DNA of 64,000 bases from Omnitrophica bacterium GWA2_41_15 (GCA_919901915.1 CAKKQB010000028.1:38499-102498); one strand, 5' to 3'; numbered from the stretch's first letter, positions 15,598 through 63,402 are shown. Program-made: numbers and translations. The notes: generated by a model not told the origin, from the letters alone.

Positions 15598-15665
15598 ACT
15601 AATACTTTAGCGTATAGCGTATAGTTTTTCTATCCGCTATCCGCTATACGCTCAGCCTCTTACAT

Positions 15666-17197: not shown

Positions 17198-17253
17198 TTT
17201 TAGCGGATAGCGGATAGCGGCTAGCGTATAGTTTTTCTATCCGCTATCCGCTT
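17198..17253. repeat. Heptamer-tandem hairpin (gcggata)n ... (tatccgc)n; one example of a pervasive family
   Basis: tttagcggatagcggatagcggctagcgtatagtttttctatccgctatccgc. More than 20 family members with different heptamer units sit at gene boundaries and inside genes. The coordinates are given in the findings. Confidence 0.85.
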
Positions 17254-26291: not shown

Positions 26292-26410
26292 TGTTTTAGC
26301 GTTTAGCGGATAGCGTTTAGCGGATAGTTTATCATGTCCTATACGCTCTACGCTATGCGCTCTACGCTCATCTTGCTCTACGTTATACGCTTGACATTTG
26401 AATCTCTTTA

Positions 26411-30071: not shown

Positions 30072-31733
30072 TTAACTGTTACAACCGAAAAGAATAGCGT
30101 TATTCTTAGTAGATTCATCCCCTAGTTTTACGACAAAGCCGTCTGCGCCAACGACAAGATGCTTTTGCGGTTCCCATGATGTTGCTTCCCAGCCGGCTTC
30201 ATCACACGACCATCCTCCAACATAAATATTCTTACTATTCACAGCTAACGCAATAGGTTCCTCTCCAGGGCCAGAAATGCCTTTTTCACCTAACCATTGA
30301 CCCCACTTTACTGCAGGCAAAATGCCATCAATAATTTTTATAACGAACTTTTGCTTATGACCACTATATGTCCCCAAAAATGTTGTTTCCCAACCTATTT
30401 GAGGGCTGGTAACGCCAATCCCATAGGTATTGGACGTCCCTCCAACGTAAATATTATTACCATTCACAGCTAAAGCATTAACTGAATCCATTGCTTTTCC
30501 ACCTAACCACTGACCCCATTTCAATTCAGGCTTATTAGTAACGGGATTATCGAAAATTTTTATAACAAATAGTTCCCTCGTGCTAGAGCTTTTAAACTCA
30601 CCTAACATCGTTATTCCATCCAAGCCGGTTTTGCTAGTTGACTCCCCCCCAACATAGATATTGCTACCATTTACAGCTATGCATAGAACTAAATCATAGA
30701 TTTTTCCTCCTAACCATTGACCCCAAACCACCGAAGCACTCGGATCAATAAGCAACGGGTAATTTGAAAGAGACTCTTTAATAGAAACAGTTAAGGCATT
30801 ATCAGCGTTAATAATATAGGATGCAGTTTTTTTAACTCCATCAGCTGTCCAATAAACAAGAGGTTCTAAAATAGCGAGAGGTTTTTCATCGCCAAAAGCG
30901 ACATTATGGTTTAAGGCTTTACGCACAGTATCCATTACCGAGGCGCGTTTTTTAAGGTCAGAATTATCTATGCCGGAAATCTTCATTGTCCTGTAAACAT
31001 TAACACTACCGTTGGGCTGTTGTTTGAGAGTTACGCTTGCGCCAGAGTCAGTTGAAAATTTCCAGGTATATTGGCTTAAATTATCAGAATGATTAAAAGC
31101 CGTAGCTTGAATCCACTCTTTTAACATTGCGCCTTGAGCAGATTGAGAAGCAAGGTATATAATAGTGTCTGTTGGCCGTTGATAAACCTGCGCAGAGCCC
31201 AGCGGTTTAGATTTAACGGTGAACTGTTTAAAAGGGGCAGAATTATTATCTAATTCCATCGTGAACGAAGCAGTATCTTGACCGTTTTTCATCAGAAAAC
31301 GTTTTTTGACGGTGTCCGATTTAGCATCAAAAGAAACGCGCATTTCCACTGGGCTCGACCGACCGAGGGCGGAATGCCCGAGGAAGTCGGGATAATGCTC
31401 CACTCCTTCGTCATTCCGGCGCAAGCCGGAATCCAGTCCGGACTCTGACATAGCAAATGTTACAGCATCACTATTAGTTTGAAATTTTGGTTTACCTGTA
31501 GGAAATAAAGCAAGAGGCTCTGGCGCGAGTTTAGATATTTGCTTAAATATCCCCACGGTCATAGACAACTCTTGAGCTATTGGCCCAGGAATAGCCGCGT
31601 ACACGTTACCAGTTAAAAAAGGCGCCGAAGAAAACAAAATAAACACTGGTAAAATAATTAAACTAACTACTGCGGCATACTTCCTTATCATTTTCAATCC
31701 TCCATTTAAACTTCTACGCCCTTTTTCATCCAT
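30072..31733 (-). CDS. Secreted SBBP-type beta-propeller repeat protein, paralog B
   Basis: The N-terminal ~270 aa are homologous to 676..3123 (AIPGPIAQELSM..QISKLAPEP..DSGLRRNDEG). WGQWLGG...NIYVGG repeats and a C-terminal ...FGCNS. In-frame repeat copies at 31356-31392 and 31409-31435. Confidence 0.6.
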   Translation of the reverse strand: MDEKGRRSLNGGLKMIRKYAAVVSLIILPVFILFSSAPFLTGNVYAAIPGPIAQELSMTVGIFKQISKLAPEPLALFPTGKPKFQTNSDAVTFAMSESGLDSGLRRNDEGVEHYPDFLGHSALGRSSPVEMRVSFDAKSDTVKKRFLMKNGQDTASFTMELDNNSAPFKQFTVKSKPLGSAQVYQRPTDTIIYLASQSAQGAMLKEWIQATAFNHSDNLSQYTWKFSTDSGASVTLKQQPNGSVNVYRTMKISGIDNSDLKKRASVMDTVRKALNHNVAFGDEKPLAILEPLVYWTADGVKKTASYIINADNALTVSIKESLSNYPLLIDPSASVVWGQWLGGKIYDLVLCIAVNGSNIYVGGESTSKTGLDGITMLGEFKSSSTRELFVIKIFDNPVTNKPELKWGQWLGGKAMDSVNALAVNGNNIYVGGTSNTYGIGVTSPQIGWETTFLGTYSGHKQKFVIKIIDGILPAVKWGQWLGEKGISGPGEEPIALAVNSKNIYVGGWSCDEAGWEATSWEPQKHLVVGADGFVVKLGDESTKNNAILFGCNS

Positions 31734-34242: not shown

Positions 34243-35275
34243 TTTTAGCGTCCTCTGTTGAATTTATAATTAACTTAGGCCTTCCAGTAAGAACAATCTT
34301 TTTATCTGAAGCGGTATAAAGCGCTTCTTCGCTGTAAGAAACATTTTCCCCGCGAGAAATCTTTACATTTCCCTTCGCGATAATCTTGTCTATTTGGCTT
34401 CCTATGGATTTCGGCCCTTGCTTTAATTCACCAGTAGGGACAGCGCAGTGCGCTGTCCCTACAGCTGTCCCTACGTTATCTTTGTGTTCCCTACCGGTCC
34501 GAATAAAATAGACATCCATTTTATCGCTCGAGATTTCAGATCCCTGCTGGCTGACTTTAACATTATTGCTAAATTGAGCGATATTTTTTTCATAATCTAC
34601 CTCAAGCGGGCCATCGCAGGTAATGATTATTTTTTCTTGTGATTTTACGCCTAAAAGCCCTTCTTTCTGAACAGGCTCAATGTCTAACCGCACATCGCGT
34701 TCTAAGGCAATCTGTTTTAAATCAGACTGCCCCTTTACCCCTGTCGCCGTCACAGTCATATTATCTCTTTTTATATTTACCGGATCACCTGTTGTAACAA
34801 CCCCGCCTTTTCTATCCCAATCCAAAGAATCAGTAGTTAGTTTTGTGCCGCCGGAAGTAGTAATAACAACATCCTGCTTTAGATTAACCTTACCATTTTC
34901 TTTATTGAAATCGCCTTTTTTAGCGCTAAGCCGAATATCTTCTCCTTTTCCATAAAAATTACCCACCACACTATCAAGCTTTACCTGCGATTGAAAAATA
35001 TCGGCTGTTTTAGCGCGAAGATCCCATTCCTTTTTACCTTTTTCTCCCTGGCCAGCAACGCTAAAATCATTAATCTGCTGATCTGCTTCAATAGATGACT
35101 GTTCAGCGGCAAATGAGAAATTATAAATACCAAAACATAAATAACAAAATAAACATAAAGCGTAAAATAAGCTCGTATCTCGTGAATCGTATCTCGTGAA
35201 TCGTTTCCCAACGAGATACGAGATACAAGATACAAAATACGAGATACGAACGACGATTCCTATTCTAAATATCAT
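34223..35275 (-). CDS. OstA-like LptA/LptC-family periplasmic LPS transport protein; start is uncertain
   Basis: Beta-jellyroll OstA-like repeats with the pattern K.N.....NV.......I..D. Lies between kdsC and lptB as in the canonical operon. The N-terminal ~35 codons translate the heptamer repeat at 35172-35260. Confidence 0.55.
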
Positions 35276-35807
35276 ACACTGCCAAAGCCTCCTGCCACTT
35301 CCCTTGCGATTTTAAAATAAGTTCCGCGACTTCGCGCACAGCGCCTTTACCGCCCAGCGCAACCGTAATATAAGAAGCCGCTTGCTTAATCTCGGAAACC
35401 GCGTTAAATACCGCTACCGGCAAACCCACTCTTTTCATTAAACATAAATCCACCAAATCATCGCCCACAAAACATACTTCGCTAATATCAACTTTGTATT
35501 TCTTTAATATCTCCCCCAACACCGCTGTTTTAGGAGAAATATTTTCAAAAATCTCCGCCACCCGCATATCACGGGCGCGCGGTCTTATTGTCTTTGAGCC
35601 TTTTGCCGTGATAATAACTGTTTTTATTCCGGCCCTATAAAGCAGGCACACGCCCAGGCCATCATGGACATCAAAAAATTTCGAATCCCTTCCTTTAGAA
35701 TCATAGATTATTCTGCCATCCGTTAAAACCCCGTCAACATCCAAAAGCAGCAACTTAACTTTTTGAGCCTTTCCCTTTAATTCTTCTGTTACTATAGTAT
35801 TTAACAT
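35265..35807 (-). CDS. kdsC: 3-deoxy-D-manno-octulosonate 8-phosphate phosphatase
   Basis: HAD motif LLLLDVDGVLTDG; 180 aa, the typical KdsC size and architecture. Confidence 0.8.
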   Translation of the reverse strand: MLNTIVTEELKGKAQKVKLLLLDVDGVLTDGRIIYDSKGRDSKFFDVHDGLGVCLLYRAGIKTVIITAKGSKTIRPRARDMRVAEIFENISPKTAVLGEILKKYKVDISEVCFVGDDLVDLCLMKRVGLPVAVFNAVSEIKQAASYITVALGGKGAVREVAELILKSQGKWQEALAVYDI

Positions 35808-35859
35808 ATTTGTGAACCGGTGAACCGGTGAACTGGTTAACCGGTTAACCGGCTAACCC

Positions 35860-36822
35860 TTACACCAATCCCGCCTTCAAAAGATCCTGCACATCTAATA
35901 GTCCCACCGGCCGCTTATTTTTATCCACAACCGGAACTTCATCTATTTTCTTGTCTTTTAATATACTCATCGCGCTGGCAGCCAGCATATCCGCGCTAAC
36001 CACGCAAGGATCCTTAGTCATTACTTCTTTAATCTTACGCTGGAGTAAATTCCCGTCTATTTCTAAGTGCCGCCGCAGGTCTCCATCAGTAAAAATCCCT
36101 TTTAACCGGCCAACCTTATCCACCACAGTAGCGCAGCCAGCCTTGGCCTGCGTTATTTCAAGCAAAACCTCTGAAACATTTTTTTCTTCATAAACAACCG
36201 GATTATCTTGAGCCTTGCGCATGATATCTTCTACTTTTAATAAAAGGCTCCTTCCCAAAGCTCCACCCGGATGAAAAAAAGCAAAATCCTTTTCTTTAAA
36301 TCCCCTCAAATCAAGAACGCATACTGCCAAGGCATCACACATAGCCAGCGTAGCGGTAGTAGAAGCAGTAGGAGCCAGACCCAGAGAACAAGCCTCTTTT
36401 TTTACTGAAATATCCAAAACCACATCGCTATATTTGGCAAGAACTGATTTCATATTTCCGGTAAGAGCGATTATTGAACAGCCGATTTTTTTTAAGAGTG
36501 GTAATAATTGTTTTATTTCATCGGATATGCCGCTGGTAGAAATAATTACAACTACGTCCGCGGGAACAACTCTTCCCAAATCTCCATGGATTGCCTCCGC
36601 GATATGTAAAAACAAGCTCGGCGTGCCTGTAGATGCCAATGTCGCGGAAAACTTCTGGGCAATAATTCCGGTTTTACCCATACCGCTTACCACAACCCTG
36701 CCTTTAGTCTTTAATATATAATTGGCCGCTCTTTCAAAGTTAATCTCAAGTCTGGATTTTAAGTCAAGGATCGCGCCAGCCTCAATATCCAAAACCTCTT
36801 TTGCTCTTTTTAATATATTCAT
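35860..36822 (-). CDS. kdsD: Arabinose-5-phosphate isomerase (SIS domain plus tandem CBS)
   Basis: SIS domain GMGKTGIIAQKFSATLASTGT followed by two CBS domains. Confidence 0.85.
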   Translation of the reverse strand: MNILKRAKEVLDIEAGAILDLKSRLEINFERAANYILKTKGRVVVSGMGKTGIIAQKFSATLASTGTPSLFLHIAEAIHGDLGRVVPADVVVIISTSGISDEIKQLLPLLKKIGCSIIALTGNMKSVLAKYSDVVLDISVKKEACSLGLAPTASTTATLAMCDALAVCVLDLRGFKEKDFAFFHPGGALGRSLLLKVEDIMRKAQDNPVVYEEKNVSEVLLEITQAKAGCATVVDKVGRLKGIFTDGDLRRHLEIDGNLLQRKIKEVMTKDPCVVSADMLAASAMSILKDKKIDEVPVVDKNKRPVGLLDVQDLLKAGLV

Positions 36823-49796: not shown

Positions 49797-50084
49797 ATAT
49801 TCTGTATCTTATCACACCGAGAGACTCCTGACAACATTTTATTGTAACCTAATCGTAGCCAAATTCAACCGCAAGATCGAATCAATTAATCTCCGATGAC
49901 AAATCAAAGCAAGCGCTTTCTTTTAGAGCTGATTTAGCCTTGTTTTTACCCAATTCATAGTGTATACTTTAAGTATAAATACGTATATCGTATCCATGAT
50001 TTTCACTACGCGGTAGAACCTTCAGCAAAAGCTTTCAGCTTAAAGCTTAAAGCTTTTGCTGACAGCTGATAGCTGATAGCTAAA

Positions 50085-50496: not shown

Positions 50497-52320
50497 ATGG
50501 CTAATTATTTGCATCCCAAGAATCCCGTAGGCAAACTCTATTGGGAAAAACTCTATTCTGCAATCGGCAAAGAAAAAGCCAAGAAAGCTAAAATTACTAC
50601 CTCAAATCGTGTCTGGATTACTCCGAATCAAGCAGTGGTTATGGAAACTGAAGACGGAGCCTTGGTTGCTAAGGCAACCCTAAAAGTAATGTTGGAGAAC
50701 GAATATCTGAGTAACCAGACACCTCCGCGGTGGCCGAAGGCCTCCGCGGAGGTGGAAGCGGTTAAGAATGAGCAAACCCAACAACTCAGCGAGCAACTAA
50801 TGAAAGAAATCATCATTCCTGCAATAACTAAGGACATCAACGAAAGCCCACGCTATGCGCCCTTGCGCCAGGTTTATTACTCTTTAATATTAGCAGAGTG
50901 GTATAAGAGAAAAGTTAGCCGAAAGCTGACAGTTGATAACCCATCCCCTTACGCCCCCTATATTAACTCCGGCACAACCGCCGGTTTGGAATCCGAAGTC
51001 CCTTGGAAAAAGCAAGCAATCTGGCAGGAATACCTAAAAAGCTACCAACAAGGCGAATACAAACTTCAGGATACGCTTTTTGGCCTAAAGAGGATGTATT
51101 TTAGCGGGGGGATAATAATTGAGTTAGGCAATACCCCTACTTTAACATCTATCACTCAAAAAAAATTATTAAATAATCCCGATTTAGCAAAGGGGTTAAG
51201 CATTTCAAAGAATCCTAATGAAGCACTTGTTATAGTAAATACTATTTTGGAAGATAATAAGCAAATCGCCAGCTCGTCTATGGATGGTCAATCTAATGAT
51301 CGATCTTTGGTTTATGAGCAGTGTTCTTTTGATTTTATAAAAGATGAAAGGAAAAAAGTTTTAGACATTCAAGCTGAAACTTTATTCAAAGAAATGGATG
51401 AATTGCAACAAAGAATAAATGCGCTTAATATTGTTAGCGACCTTTCCAAATTAGTTTGTAATGAAGATACACTTATTCGTAAAATTGGTGGAATTCTCTC
51501 TTCCTTTAAAAATTTAAAACAAAAAGTAGGCGCATCTAAGGAAAGTCTTTCATATGAAAGACTTAATAATAGGCTAAAAGAATTGGAAGAGTTACTATTT
51601 GAAAGATGTTATTTTTCAGTTTTGAAAGATTTGGAGAAAGAAAGATATAATGAGATTAGGTATGTTCAGAAGTTTTTGACGCTAAGATTATGTAGGGAAT
51701 CTTTAAATCTTATTGATTCTTTCATTAAGCATTTCCCGGATTTAAGCAAAGAAGAGCGAAAAAAATACTTATGGAATACTGAACTGCAGGTAGCTAACGT
51801 CCTTATACGGGATGATCTTTTTAGGGGAATAACGGCAAAGAATGATATTGCATGGATTAAAGATATGATGATAAAGGGTAAATTTCTTAGTGTCGCACCT
51901 CCTTTAAATAACTGTTGGTTATCGGCAAATTATTTTTATTCAACATTTAGATATAATGATGAATCTCCGCGAGCAAAATTGCTTTGTATCTTAGATGCTT
52001 TCCGAATATATGGGCATGTTTTAGCAGAGGAAGAATACTTCTCCGAATCGGAAGAGGAAAAATACTCCGACGCATCGGGATGGAGAAGCTGTTTAGAGGG
52101 TGACTTAGAAGATATCCTTAGTTCTTTAGATACAAAAGAATTTTATCAGATATCATCTTTGTCTAAGTTAGTTTCCTTAATTAAAAAAGAATTGAAAATC
52201 AAGAAGAACCCTTTGCTTAAGTTATTTAGAAAAAGTTTGTTTCAAAACGATGAAATAAAAGAATGTATTACTGAAATTGCCCTTTATTTTTTAAGGCAAA
52301 AAAAGGCATCGTATCCATAA
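50497..52320 (+). CDS. Large hypothetical protein, 607 aa as tracked; about 727 aa if joined to the upstream signal peptide
   Basis: No recognisable domains and a central coiled-coil-like region. The upstream in-frame extension is open and includes a translated gtcattcctgcgaaagcaggaatcc element (VIPAKAGIQ). Confidence 0.5.
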   Translation: MANYLHPKNPVGKLYWEKLYSAIGKEKAKKAKITTSNRVWITPNQAVVMETEDGALVAKATLKVMLENEYLSNQTPPRWPKASAEVEAVKNEQTQQLSEQLMKEIIIPAITKDINESPRYAPLRQVYYSLILAEWYKRKVSRKLTVDNPSPYAPYINSGTTAGLESEVPWKKQAIWQEYLKSYQQGEYKLQDTLFGLKRMYFSGGIIIELGNTPTLTSITQKKLLNNPDLAKGLSISKNPNEALVIVNTILEDNKQIASSSMDGQSNDRSLVYEQCSFDFIKDERKKVLDIQAETLFKEMDELQQRINALNIVSDLSKLVCNEDTLIRKIGGILSSFKNLKQKVGASKESLSYERLNNRLKELEELLFERCYFSVLKDLEKERYNEIRYVQKFLTLRLCRESLNLIDSFIKHFPDLSKEERKKYLWNTELQVANVLIRDDLFRGITAKNDIAWIKDMMIKGKFLSVAPPLNNCWLSANYFYSTFRYNDESPRAKLLCILDAFRIYGHVLAEEEYFSESEEEKYSDASGWRSCLEGDLEDILSSLDTKEFYQISSLSKLVSLIKKELKIKKNPLLKLFRKSLFQNDEIKECITEIALYFLRQKKASYP

Positions 52321-52328
52321 GCGCTAAC

Positions 52329-52715
52329 TTGATAGACGAATACGATTATTTTTTTGAATTAGAATACGCAAAAATAGAACCGTTCTTTTTGGATCTAATT
52401 GCGAAATTATACTTCCAAAAATTCAAGCCTACAAATTTAGTATTATCTCATAAACGGAAAGAAGAGAAAAAGTATATTAAAGAATACATAGAGCAGGCAG
52501 TTAAAGAAAATTTAAAGATATTGGGACTCTCTGAAACGGAAGATTCATGGGCTAATGTTCAAAACGCCCATCGGGGATTGGCTAAAAAATATCATCCTGA
52601 CCTTAATCCAGGGAAAAACACGCACGAAGAGTTTATAAAAATTCAAGGTGCGTATGAGTTTTTAGAAAATGATAGAAAAAAAATTTTCCTATTAAATCGT
52701 CTGCTTCGCCGATAA
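52329..52715 (+). CDS. Small J-domain (DnaJ-like) protein
   Basis: C-terminal J domain with an HPD motif (LAKKYHPDLNPGKNTHEEFIKIQGAYEFL) and a non-homologous N-terminus. Confidence 0.6.
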   Translation: MIDEYDYFFELEYAKIEPFFLDLIAKLYFQKFKPTNLVLSHKRKEEKKYIKEYIEQAVKENLKILGLSETEDSWANVQNAHRGLAKKYHPDLNPGKNTHEEFIKIQGAYEFLENDRKKIFLLNRLLRR

Positions 52716-52741
52716 AAAGCCAAGAATTTGTTTCTTCGGCA

Positions 52742-54046
52742 GTGGTTCAAGAACCAGATTTAACCGAGTCAGCCGACGCGGTTGCCAAGGGCAGCCCCTT
52801 AGTAAACAAAGATCACCGTTTTCTTGCAAAAGATCAACCCGACTCTTCAGTGCTGGAAACAGATATCAAGGAGGATACTACCAACTCGCCGACGGCGGCT
52901 GAACTTGCCTCTTTGGCGGTGAGAATATCTAAAAGTAATCTAAAAGATGTTAATAACGCTTCTTTGAATATTATTCAAGCCAAGGTCAATCCTAATTTAA
53001 GGGGTGATTTTAAAATAGCAATTCCTGGGGCGATAGTAGATAATACCCCAAAACCTGATAAGAAAATAGACAGTTCAAATAGCATAGAGAATAAAATTTT
53101 AGATTACATAACAAGGCATAGAGTAGACCCCTATGAACTTATTATGAAAAAATTTGAAGAAGGTTACCAAGTTATTACCTTAGGAGAAACGCATCATTGC
53201 AAAAAAATGCAAACCTTCTTCCTTTCTTTAATTAAAAGGTTAAAACAATCTCAGGATAATAATGTAATAATAGCCATGGAAGATGGTAATTCTAAATACC
53301 AACCGTATATTGAAAGCTTATTCTAGAGTTTAAAAGATGTAAAACCGGAGGCCCGAATTGAACATATTAACCAAGTATTATTTGATGCAACTAAAAAATT
53401 AGGAGATATAAATCATGAAGGTGTAGGAATTAGCGGCGTAACTAACTTGCTTTGTGAAACAATAAAGATAGCCTTCGAAAATAATATCAAAGTAATCTGC
53501 GTAGATCCAAAAAGGCCGTTTACAAGACGTGATGAAGAAATGGCTAAAAATATCGGAAATATTATAGAAAAAAATCCTGGAATTAAAATTCTTTTTTATG
53601 GAGGAGCAAGTCATGCTGCAAATACGTCTTATATTCAGAAGGGTGGGTGGTATCGCGACGAAGATGATGTCGCCCTTTATACCTCTCTAGGTAAATATCT
53701 TAAGACCCGTTATTCTTCAAAAAAAACGTACACTATTATTTTATCGAGCGATAAAGACCTCTTTCCTTATTTTGATGGAGGATGGTTTAGCCGAACATTT
53801 AACTTACCTTCTAATAATCAAATAGAGAAAATGGTTTTTGCTTTAGATGGATTAAAAGAGACGATATTTTCTCAGGATCCTTGGTTGTTTACAGGCGAAG
53901 AGGATAAGTGGGAAAAAATGTATGAAGGAAATAATATGCCGAGTTGGACAAAATATAAGCGTAGCAAATACAATATGTTAGGAAATGCAGCAAATGGCCT
54001 TATCTTTTTAGGCGCAACTTATCCTACGGCAGACAAAAAAACCTGA
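52742..54046 (+). pseudogene. ChaN/Tiki (PF04187-like) family protein interrupted by an in-frame TAG at 53324-53326
   Basis: ORFs 52742..53326 and 53447..54046 share one frame and are open between them except for the single TAG. The upstream half carries ITLGETHH and the downstream half KILFYGGASHAAN, matching the two His motifs of ChaN/Tiki. Confidence 0.5.
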
Positions 54047-54085
54047 ATTGGTTCTTTAGCGCTAAAAACACAAGACCTGACACTT

Positions 54086-54430
54086 ATGGCCCATAATTCA
54101 GATACAGGTGGCATCGATCTCTCTCAAATCGAACTCACGCTTAAGGACGAAGCGTATATGTCAGGCCTTAACCCCGCTGACAGAAAAATCCTCTATGCAG
54201 CCAACGCGTTAAAAAAGGACTGGGAAAGCCTTTCACTGCTTTATGTCCATGAAATAATGCTACTTTTAAAAGACAACCTTGTCTCGGATATACAGAATAA
54301 AACCCTTTTCCTTGATATCCTCAACCAACTCAAAGTCAAGGAATTCCTTAACCCACAGGCCGTGCAATTCCTTAATCTCATCCAGTCCCAAAAGCCCCTT
54401 TCTGAGATAAAACTCGCGCTGTATAATTAA
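54086..54430 (+). CDS. Hypothetical protein
   Basis: 114-aa ORF in the island with no recognisable motifs. Confidence 0.3.
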   Translation: MAHNSDTGGIDLSQIELTLKDEAYMSGLNPADRKILYAANALKKDWESLSLLYVHEIMLLLKDNLVSDIQNKTLFLDILNQLKVKEFLNPQAVQFLNLIQSQKPLSEIKLALYN

Positions 54431-54459
54431 AATCGCAGCCAATCGCAACTGAATAATAT

Positions 54460-54490
54460 CTATCTAACAATTTTAAATTGTGGTATAATT
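54460..54490 (+). promoter_or_regulatory. Candidate extended -10 promoter and operator for mntA-hepT
   Basis: tgGTATAAT at 54481-54489 (TGn extended -10) is flanked by direct repeats taaattgt ... taaattgt. RBS aaggag lies 6 nt before the ATG at 54525. Confidence 0.4.
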
Positions 54491-54524
54491 AAATTGTTAA
54501 AAAAAAATGAGAAAGGAGCGTAGG

Positions 54525-54824
54525 ATGTTTACAAAGAGTGATATATTGAAAGTAATCCAAGAAAATACGGATGAAATCAAAACCTACGGTATTAAAAGAA
54601 TAGGAATTTTTGGTTCATTTGCTAGGGCCGCAGAGAAGGATAAAAGCGACATTGATGTACTTATTGAATTTAAGAAAGGCAAAAAAGCGTTTGACAATTA
54701 TATGGAGACTAAATTTCTTTTGGAAAAGATATTTCATCGCAGGGTTGATTTAGTAATAAAAGAGGCATTAAAGCCTGAAATTAAAAAAAATATACTTCGT
54801 GAGGTAGTATATGCGAGAATATAA
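54525..54824 (+). CDS. mntA: MntA-type minimal nucleotidyltransferase antitoxin
   Basis: GIFGSFARAAEKDKSDIDVLIEF matches the GS..G....D.D motif of pol-beta-like nucleotidyltransferases. It overlaps the hepT start. The first ATG with an RBS is at 54525; the ORF track starts at 54507. Confidence 0.8.
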   Translation: MFTKSDILKVIQENTDEIKTYGIKRIGIFGSFARAAEKDKSDIDVLIEFKKGKKAFDNYMETKFLLEKIFHRRVDLVIKEALKPEIKKNILREVVYARI

Positions 54825-55164
54825 TCTTTATTTAAACGATATCCTTAAGAGTATTAAGAAGATAGAGAGAGAGAGAGAGATATATATATATACAAAAGGG
54901 CTAACCTTAAAACAGGTAATGAAGAATGAATTAGTCGTTGATGGAGTTGCCAAGAATCTGGAGGTGATAGGTGAAGCGGTAAAAAATATTCCTTTCCAGA
55001 TAAAAGAAAAATATCCGAAGATTGAATGGAAGAAAATTGCCGGTTTAAGGGATATTTTAACCCACGAATATTTTAGTATAGATTTGGAAGTCTTATGGGA
55101 TATTACACAGAATAAATTACCTATTTTGAAAAAGCAGATTTTAACATTACTGCTTACGAAGTGA
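54811..55164 (+). CDS. hepT: HepT-type HEPN toxin (DUF86)
   Basis: R-x4-H-x-Y motif RDILTHEY near the C-terminus; 117 aa. It overlaps mntA by 14 nt. Confidence 0.8.
   Translation: MREYNLYLNDILKSIKKIEREREIYIYTKGLTLKQVMKNELVVDGVAKNLEVIGEAVKNIPFQIKEKYPKIEWKKIAGLRDILTHEYFSIDLEVLWDITQNKLPILKKQILTLLLTK
54874..54902. repeat. Dinucleotide repeat (AG)8(AT)6 inside hepT
   Basis: The run agagagagagagagagatatatatatata is read as EREREIYIY. Confidence 0.85.
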
Positions 55165-55483
55165 AATAAGGTAATTCTCGCGGCATTGGCCTCAACCAAC
55201 TCAAGGCCAATGCCTCTTTTTCAATATCAAGTAGATACAATCCGCCGCCAAACGCAGTCTCTAAAATCCTGAATTGTGGTTCAGTGCTAGAGCCAATGGA
55301 TAACGCCCGCATTTTCTGAAATAACGGCAGTTCTTTACTCAACGCCCTTATAACCTTGGTCAGTTCCTCTTCAATATCAACCTTGTCATTACTGTAGCGC
55401 GACCAGATTTTATCTTCATGGCTTAATTTTAAACAGCCGGTCCTAACACCTGCCTCAATTATTTTTTTATCGGAATAATTCAT
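55154..55483 (-). CDS. Hypothetical protein; possibly an N-terminal fragment of a SAM-dependent methyltransferase
   Basis: RALSIGSSTEPQFRILETAFGGGLYLLDIEKEAL weakly resembles methyltransferase motif I. The ORF ends exactly where the plus-strand island begins. Confidence 0.3.
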   Translation of the reverse strand: MNYSDKKIIEAGVRTGCLKLSHEDKIWSRYSNDKVDIEEELTKVIRALSKELPLFQKMRALSIGSSTEPQFRILETAFGGGLYLLDIEKEALALSWLRPMPRELPYFTS

Positions 55484-63313: not shown

Positions 63314-63402
63314 TACAGCCTCCTTTTGCGTATTGCGTATTGCGTATTGCGTATTGCGCAATACGCATCACGCACGACGCACGACGAAATATGCGCGACG
63401 AA

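Follow-up and report, generated by a model that had tools for sequence, protein, structure and literature searches.

The two plus-strand genes at 54525-55164 of the window (the whole 64-kb stretch of DNA analysed here, from a Hainich groundwater contig, ERZ1292640, Hain_H43_02um) encode a predicted toxin-antitoxin pair of the HepT/MntA type, and the toxin gene carries a compound dinucleotide microsatellite in its early codons. The features of the locus are the following:

54467-54497, plus strand: operator-like repeats, read from the sequence, flanking the -10 hexamer
54481-54489, plus strand: extended -10 element TGGTATAAT, 36 nt 5' of the mntA start and without a good -35
54525-54824, plus strand: mntA, a minimal nucleotidyltransferase antitoxin gene, 99 aa
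54811-55164, plus strand: hepT, a HEPN RNase toxin gene by homology, 117 aa in the window allele
54864-54892, plus strand: the microsatellite agagagagagagagagatatatatatata, consisting of (AG)8 at 54864-54879 and (AT)6A at 54880-54892
54919-55164, plus strand: internal ORF starting at Met37 of HepT, 81 aa (P0002), without helix alpha-1 (modelled residues 4-29)
55182-55224, plus strand: intrinsic-terminator-like hairpin, with an 11-bp perfect stem (55182-55192/55204-55214) followed by CTCTTTTTC

The nucleotidyltransferase gene lies upstream of the toxin gene on the same strand, an arrangement also found in two related loci (L016 and L017), and the two genes overlap by 14 nt (54811-54824), the length given in the original prediction. 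HepT matches the HepT-like/DUF86 HEPN family of Pfam (PF01934; E = 6.2e-26, bit score 90.9, cut-off 23.5), and MntA matches NTP_transf_2 (PF01909; E = 4.8e-14, bit score 53, cut-off 21) as well as Polbeta (7e-13). HepT/MntA pairs are defined by the RX4HXY motif of the toxin, which comprises the RNase site and the acceptor tyrosine, together with the GSX10DXD motif of the antitoxin (Yao et al. 2020, PMC7641770). The former is present in HepT as RDILTHEY (R80-DILT-H85-E-Y87, encoded at 55048-55071), with R80, H85 and Y87 invariant among 32 aligned sequences, and the latter in MntA as GSFARAAEKDKSDID (G30-S31-FARAAEKDKS-D42-I-D44 of 99 aa, encoded at 54612-54656).

A PDB search with the single HepT sequence gave no match and a profile was needed; the homolog profile matched S. 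oneidensis HepT (5yep/6m6u) at 5e-8 in an alignment that runs across RX4HXY, where the window motif is paired with GLRNIAVHDY of 5yep. The same two structures were the best Foldseek matches (TM 0.57-0.68) of the AlphaFold model of HepT, which has a mean pLDDT of 84. MntA matches PDB entry 1wot at 5e-11 and the PADLOC candidate family PDC-S09 at 6.5e-36, the only PADLOC match of the pair. Both NCBIfam equivalogs score below their cut-off of 60, with 39.1 bits for NF047751 (HepT) and 47.2 bits for NF047752 (MntA). The locus had been described as a canonical, AMPylation-controlled type VII pair; the domains, both motifs and the gene overlap support a pair of the HepT/MntA type, for which AMPylation is predicted, whereas the word 'canonical' is slightly generous because of these equivalog scores. 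Judged by sequence, these two proteins fall within the DUF86/MNT family at large and are not equivalogs of the characterised HepT/MntA proteins. Outside the tract, dN/dS of hepT is 0.10-0.12 in comparisons with two relatives (0.20-0.25 for mntA), and the gene is otherwise intact, with no lesion beyond the tract; therefore, hepT has not long been a pseudogene and was functional for most of its history. Among the GTDB species representatives, the best hepT match is only 62% identical, and the species is without a genome there. Placement in the Omnitrophota comes from homologs of TopA with 70-80% identity, every named one of which is from Omnitrophica/Omnitrophota.

The mntA reading frame opens at 54507, but the preferred start is the ATG at 54525, which is preceded by the ribosome-binding site AAAGGAG (54512-54518) and is picked by most gene callers. 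The ribosome-binding site of hepT is GAGG (54801-54804), 6 nt ahead of the ATG. Upstream of mntA, a tgGTATAAT element flanked by direct repeats had been reported, and it is indeed found, as TGGTATAAT between two copies of TTAAATTGT. Elements of this kind are no more frequent in the window than expected by chance (TGNTATAAT occurs 2 times against 4.25 expected), so a promoter role is suggested only by the position of TGGTATAAT and by the closest relative (L016), which keeps the element as TGTTATAAT; the predicted transcript would have its 5' end near 54496. The copies of TTAAATTGT, at 54473-54481 and 54489-54497, are 16 nt apart and are the only two occurrences in the 64-kb window; the first one forms the right half of a perfect palindrome, the inverted repeat ACAATTT-t-AAATTGT at 54467-54481. 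These operator-like repeats are partly retained in L016. In S. oneidensis, the -10 and -35 of MntA's own promoter carry palindromes to which this protein binds (PMC4621449) and, by analogy, protein binding to the repeats and a promoter-operator role are plausible. Downstream of hepT, the terminator-like hairpin has an RNA fold of -20 kcal/mol (z -5.3), with none of 200 shuffled sequences as stable. A two-hexamer consensus scan made no call at the promoter, which has no -35, nor at the terminator, which has an 11-nt loop, and both were judged from sequence and folding. With promoter-like signals upstream and the hairpin downstream, the operon has recognisable boundaries. Two homopolymers, A9 in the mntA leader between the -10 and the ribosome-binding site (54499-54507) and A8 within mntA (54783-54790), have the same length in every assembly that spans them.

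The pair is part of a group of seven plus-strand genes (50497-55164) within a long minus-strand run of housekeeping genes, with a GC content of 0.31-0.38 versus about 0.40 in the flanks. The group encodes a 607-aa protein of no assigned function, a 128-aa DnaJ-domain protein, the products of ORFs of 194, 199 and 114 aa, MntA and HepT, and is possibly an accessory island. Classification as a mobile cassette or defence island was not adopted: the downstream integrase sits in a housekeeping order of the dprA-topA-xerC type, and PADLOC matches MntA only. The gene for the 114-aa protein (54086-54430) precedes mntA, and L016 has both this gene and the toxin-antitoxin pair, with about 78% nucleotide identity over 54107-55142; L016 also has a second copy of the start of this gene (1773-1853) directly after hepT, the first copy being at 733-1100. 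The 114-aa protein, for which no match was found in Pfam, NCBIfam or PADLOC, may be a third component of the module. The copies of a 21-nt direct repeat (54319-54339/55190-55210), identical in its first 15 nt (CCTCAACCAACTCAA), lie on either side of a segment that comprises the promoter, both genes of the pair and half of the terminator, with copy 1 within the 114-aa gene and copy 2 in the terminator loop; it may be the recombination scar of a cassette insertion. On the minus strand, a 109-aa ORF (55154-55483) without a family match overlaps the waaA stop by 17 nt and the hepT end by 11 nt, and its last 17 codons traverse the hepT terminator hairpin; this ORF may represent a gene truncated by the arrival of the toxin-antitoxin cassette. 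Elsewhere in the window, two 500-nt stretches (2320-2819 and 30846-31345) are 84% identical, which indicates that the two proteins they encode in part, from an 815-aa ORF and the ORF at 30072-31733, share a paralogous domain. Both ORFs are without a Pfam match. The latter is 553 aa long as an ORF and 539 aa according to the gene callers, and an exact protein look-up of the 553-aa form gave no match, probably reflecting another called start.

The microsatellite covers codons 18-27 of hepT and is read as E-R-E-R-E-I-Y-I-Y at codons 19-27; mntA ends 40 nt upstream of it. A tract encoding this peptide had been placed at 54874-54902; the tract and its reading stand, and its position is 54864-54892, 10 nt lower. 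All the features described in the original prediction exist, with two coordinates corrected. The tract had also been claimed to be of a rare kind, and this holds in the window: (AG)8(AT)6A is the sole dinucleotide tract of more than 4 units, the next-longest one having 4 units, and the two longest dinucleotide tracts of the window adjoin each other within hepT. Under a first-order Markov model, the expected number of (AG)8 in the window is 5e-7, and the longest dinucleotide tract in 100 shuffled sequences had 4-6 units.

None of 31 aligned homologs has an insertion at the position of the tract, and these proteins read KKIEKYTKG where the window protein reads KKIEREREIYIYTKG; the tract is also absent from the 120 best HepT homologs. 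In these 120 proteins, 47-49 residues separate Met1 from the conserved GEA, and a spacing of 53 is found only in the window protein. At the DNA level, the relatives read ATAGAAAAATATACA (L016) and ATAGAGAAATATACA (L017) at this site, and the window reads ATAGAGAGAGAGAGAGAGATATATATATATACA, a net in-frame gain of 18 nt or 6 residues. In 214 kb from 42 related loci, a single dinucleotide tract reaches 5 or more units, a (CG)5 located outside hepT. From these sequence comparisons, the tract appears to have grown from AGAG and ATATA seeds of 4-5 nt in codons 18-22 of hepT. The possibility that it is a conserved coded feature of HepT was rejected, as no homolog among the 31 aligned and the 120 best has it, and hence it does not represent conserved codons. 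In the AlphaFold model, the insertion is predicted to extend one continuous helix alpha-1 (residues 4-29), with a pLDDT of 79 for residues 21-30.

A change of one unit in either part of the tract shifts the reading frame, as gain of one AG truncates HepT at 31 aa and loss of one AT at 38 aa. When all unit combinations were computed, the frame was kept only at combined totals (AG plus AT) of 11, 14 or 17 units, and all other totals stopped translation after 31 or 38 codons. The suggestion that a single-unit change would truncate the toxin is thus correct, the 31- and 38-aa stubs being the products of (AG)9(AT)6 and (AG)8(AT)5, respectively. The 31-aa stub is present as a called protein (P0245) in contig NODE_43 of assembly ERZ1292638, and a search for further stub alleles with an artificial 42-aa stub returned only this one. 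In the frameshifted alleles, it is the predicted 81-aa ORF from Met37 that gene callers label 'HepT'.

Loci from other public assemblies were recovered by exact-protein look-ups, and the repeat units were counted in contigs L001-L005. The tract in these assemblies is as follows:

Window, ERZ1292640 (44x): (AG)8(AT)6, hepT intact, 117 aa
NCBI contig of 118 kb: (AG)8(AT)6, inferred from the protein, hepT intact, 117 aa
ERZ1292638 NODE_43 (34x): (AG)9(AT)6, hepT truncated, 31 aa
ERR3858135: (AG)9(AT)6, hepT truncated, 31 aa
ERR2809158: (AG)9(AT)6, hepT truncated, 31 aa
SRR32696711: (AG)8(AT)5, hepT truncated, 38 aa
ERR3858133: two contigs that stop at the AG/AT junction, tract not spanned

The NCBI contig is assigned (AG)8(AT)6 because it encodes the identical 117-aa protein. 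Truncated alleles are thus found in four of the six assemblies that span the tract and the intact allele in two. The tract, which was to be checked for variation, is not invariant: three length alleles occur among public assemblies that are otherwise 99.6-100% identical, and between the window and each of these loci there are 0-2 SNPs and no indel besides the tract. No in-frame length variant was found among these alleles, every observed variant being a frameshift. In JGI metagenomes, neither a gapped pattern across the tract nor a degenerate one for hepT gave a match.

The window and NODE_43 of ERZ1292638 could be compared over about 52 kb and differ there by 1 SNP and 2 indels, both of which are in tandem repeats: one AG unit in hepT and one 8-nt unit in an octamer array located between genes (35812-35852). 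The remaining tandem arrays of the compared region are unchanged. As repeat changes outnumber substitutions (two repeat indels versus one SNP), these populations appear to differ mainly through repeat slippage. ERZ1292638 has the same allele as ERR3858135 at both repeats, and the two probably represent the same population. The second polymorphism, in the octamer array, points to repeat instability as a general property of this genome rather than of hepT.

The octamer array (GTGAACCG/GTTAACCG, about 5 units) lies between the minus-strand genes 35265-35807 and 35860-36822, just upstream of the start of a gene for a KdsC-like hydrolase in an LPS/Kdo cluster, and, relative to the window, is shorter by one 8-nt unit in both ERZ1292638 NODE_43 and ERR3858135. 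In total, the window contains about 40 tandem arrays with a unit of 7 or 8 nt, the unit sequence being different in each array (for example, 15608-15652, 17201-17252 and 26295-26391; further arrays are at 35172-35249, 50021-50081 and 63326-63386). Many of them consist of an array followed by its reverse-complement array, located in the gaps between minus-strand genes, and long hairpins are predicted for these, with -21 to -42 kcal/mol and z -4 to -7. The 64-kb window as a whole has no match to any Rfam family. The heptamer-repeat arrays are possible terminator-like or REP-like elements.

Taken together, these observations make it probable, in our assessment, that a slippage-prone tract switches hepT of a HepT/MntA (type VII) operon on and off and leaves the antitoxin intact. 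That the tract is prone to slippage, as originally proposed, is supported by the length alleles between populations and by its absence from homologs. The reading in which hepT changes between intact and truncated frames through the tract, with mntA unaffected, is well supported, and the polymorphism is known between populations. The proposed sequence of events would begin with the expansion, in this lineage, of the AGAG and ATATA seeds into an uninterrupted (AG)8(AT)6, followed by replication slippage that would add or remove 2-nt units in either half of the tract. Because only some unit sums keep the frame while mntA is unaffected, the population would hold both toxin-ON and toxin-OFF genotypes, which would coexist and interconvert by single-unit slips, all of them still making the antitoxin. 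By homology, HepT would be a HEPN RNase that MntA neutralises by adding AMP to the tyrosine of RX4HXY; we infer both the RNase toxicity and the AMPylation by analogy with characterised pairs. Slippage would likewise be the mutational process, and it may be reversible and may carry a benefit, such as bet-hedging against the cost of an RNase or defence module. For fast, reversible switching within a clone, the one hint is the ERR3858133 assembly, which breaks inside the tract. The alleles could also have become fixed, each in one or another of a few close strains. Going further, hepT might be a contingency locus, that is, a free-living groundwater member of the Omnitrophota would use the compound repeat to switch HepT randomly, with the antitoxin retained, and would thereby hedge the cost of an RNase-based stress or anti-phage module against its benefit; we put this forward as plausible but less likely than not.

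The main rival to switching is neutral decay, according to which the tract would be a chance hotspot in a dispensable toxin gene and the frameshifts would be early pseudogenisation, with no selection for switching. It owes this rank to the majority of truncated alleles (four of the six spanning assemblies), which is what gene decay would give, to the probable origin of ERZ1292638 and ERR3858135 from one population, and to the variation of a non-coding octamer array in the same genome, which contains dozens of tandem arrays. Loss of chromosomal toxins of toxin-antitoxin systems is, moreover, common. However, a decaying gene fits poorly with a hepT that has no other lesion and a dN/dS of about 0.1 against two relatives. 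Nor does decay readily explain that the tract is perfectly uninterrupted, is located early in the gene and is the only long dinucleotide tract of the window, or that variants of +1 and -1 unit both surround the in-frame allele. On balance, we regard neutral decay as unlikely, although decay of recent onset would agree with all of these points.

A technical origin of the alleles, through PCR or Illumina stutter combined with assembler choices at a low-complexity tract, is highly improbable, since within one study the two deep assemblies, at 44x and 34x, disagree in consensus length, three assemblies concur on (AG)9(AT)6, and the second indel, a clean 8-nt unit, was reproduced by an independent Logan assembly. 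Dinucleotide tracts are stutter-prone, one assembly (ERR3858133) breaks at the tract, and two of the variants come from short Logan contigs (L004 and L005) for which no depth is given, but stutter touches a minority of reads and the consensus tracks the majority. We give scarcely any credence to the view that the tract matters as protein, with ERERE-IYIY lengthening alpha-1 and tuning HepT oligomerisation or the interaction with MntA, so that in-frame changes of length would be the variation of interest: the model does give one continuous helix (residues 4-29) that includes the insertion, and in-frame alternatives could be reached by slippage, but the observed variants are all frameshifts, and no homolog, whether among the 31 aligned or the 120 best, has an insertion at this position.

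If the tract does switch hepT, this would be the first repeat-switched type VII toxin, and classical phase variation would extend beyond host-associated pathogens. Some of the natural population would then always carry a disarmed toxin, which bears on the purpose of chromosomal toxin-antitoxin modules. If the switch is not real, the locus still provides a clean natural case of microsatellite birth and frameshift decay within a conserved gene. The alleles are already present in public Hainich metagenome runs, and published work on the Hainich wells also used metatranscriptomes (PMC12960796).

Among characterised systems, the closest counterpart is HepT/MntA of S. oneidensis (SO_3166/SO_3165; PMC7641770, PMC4621449; PDB 5yep, 6m6u), which consists of the same PF01934 and PF01909 pair with the antitoxin first and overlapping genes, shares RX4HXY, GSX10DXD and palindromes around the -10, and is the best solved-structure match in both profile and fold. 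The window proteins differ in that they are shorter (117 and 99 aa) and that HepT is only about 20% identical to the solved HepT; in addition, no repeat tract is reported in S. oneidensis, whereas the window has a length-polymorphic (AG)n(AT)m in alpha-1, in a pair known from its sequence alone. In the HEPN-MNT system of Aphanizomenon flos-aquae (7ae2, 7ae6, 7ae8), the HEPN toxin is neutralised via an AMPylated tyrosine next to the RNase motif, and 'di-AMPylated HEPN toxin' is the title of the PDB entries; with TM 0.47-0.53, this system is a poorer fold match than the S. oneidensis protein. We know of no repeat tract in the A. flos-aquae system.

On/off switching driven by repeats is textbook knowledge for surface antigens and restriction-modification genes of pathogens. 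To our knowledge, such switching is hardly documented in free-living, uncultivated bacteria. No report of a repeat-switched HepT, or of another toxin of a toxin-antitoxin system switched in this way, is apparent in the titles and abstracts of the papers retrieved by full-text search, and in the 2013 survey of HEPN proteins 'phase-variable' occurs only within a cited title. Switches based on dinucleotides in coding regions include oipA of H. pylori, with (CT)n (PMC10564699), and the Type III mod gene of M. mycoides, with (AG)12 (PMC3498834). Like hepT, these genes have an uninterrupted tract early in the ORF, a single-unit change shifts the frame and truncates the product, and tract lengths differ among close genomes. 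Both belong to host-associated pathogens, encode surface proteins or restriction-modification methyltransferases, and have had their switching rates and phenotypes measured. In contrast, hepT encodes a toxin of a toxin-antitoxin pair in a free-living groundwater host, its tract is compound, with both units varying, and the polymorphism is documented between populations. Thus, the mechanism and the protein family are each known, and what appears to be new is their combination, together with a free-living, uncultivated host in which natural alleles are found.
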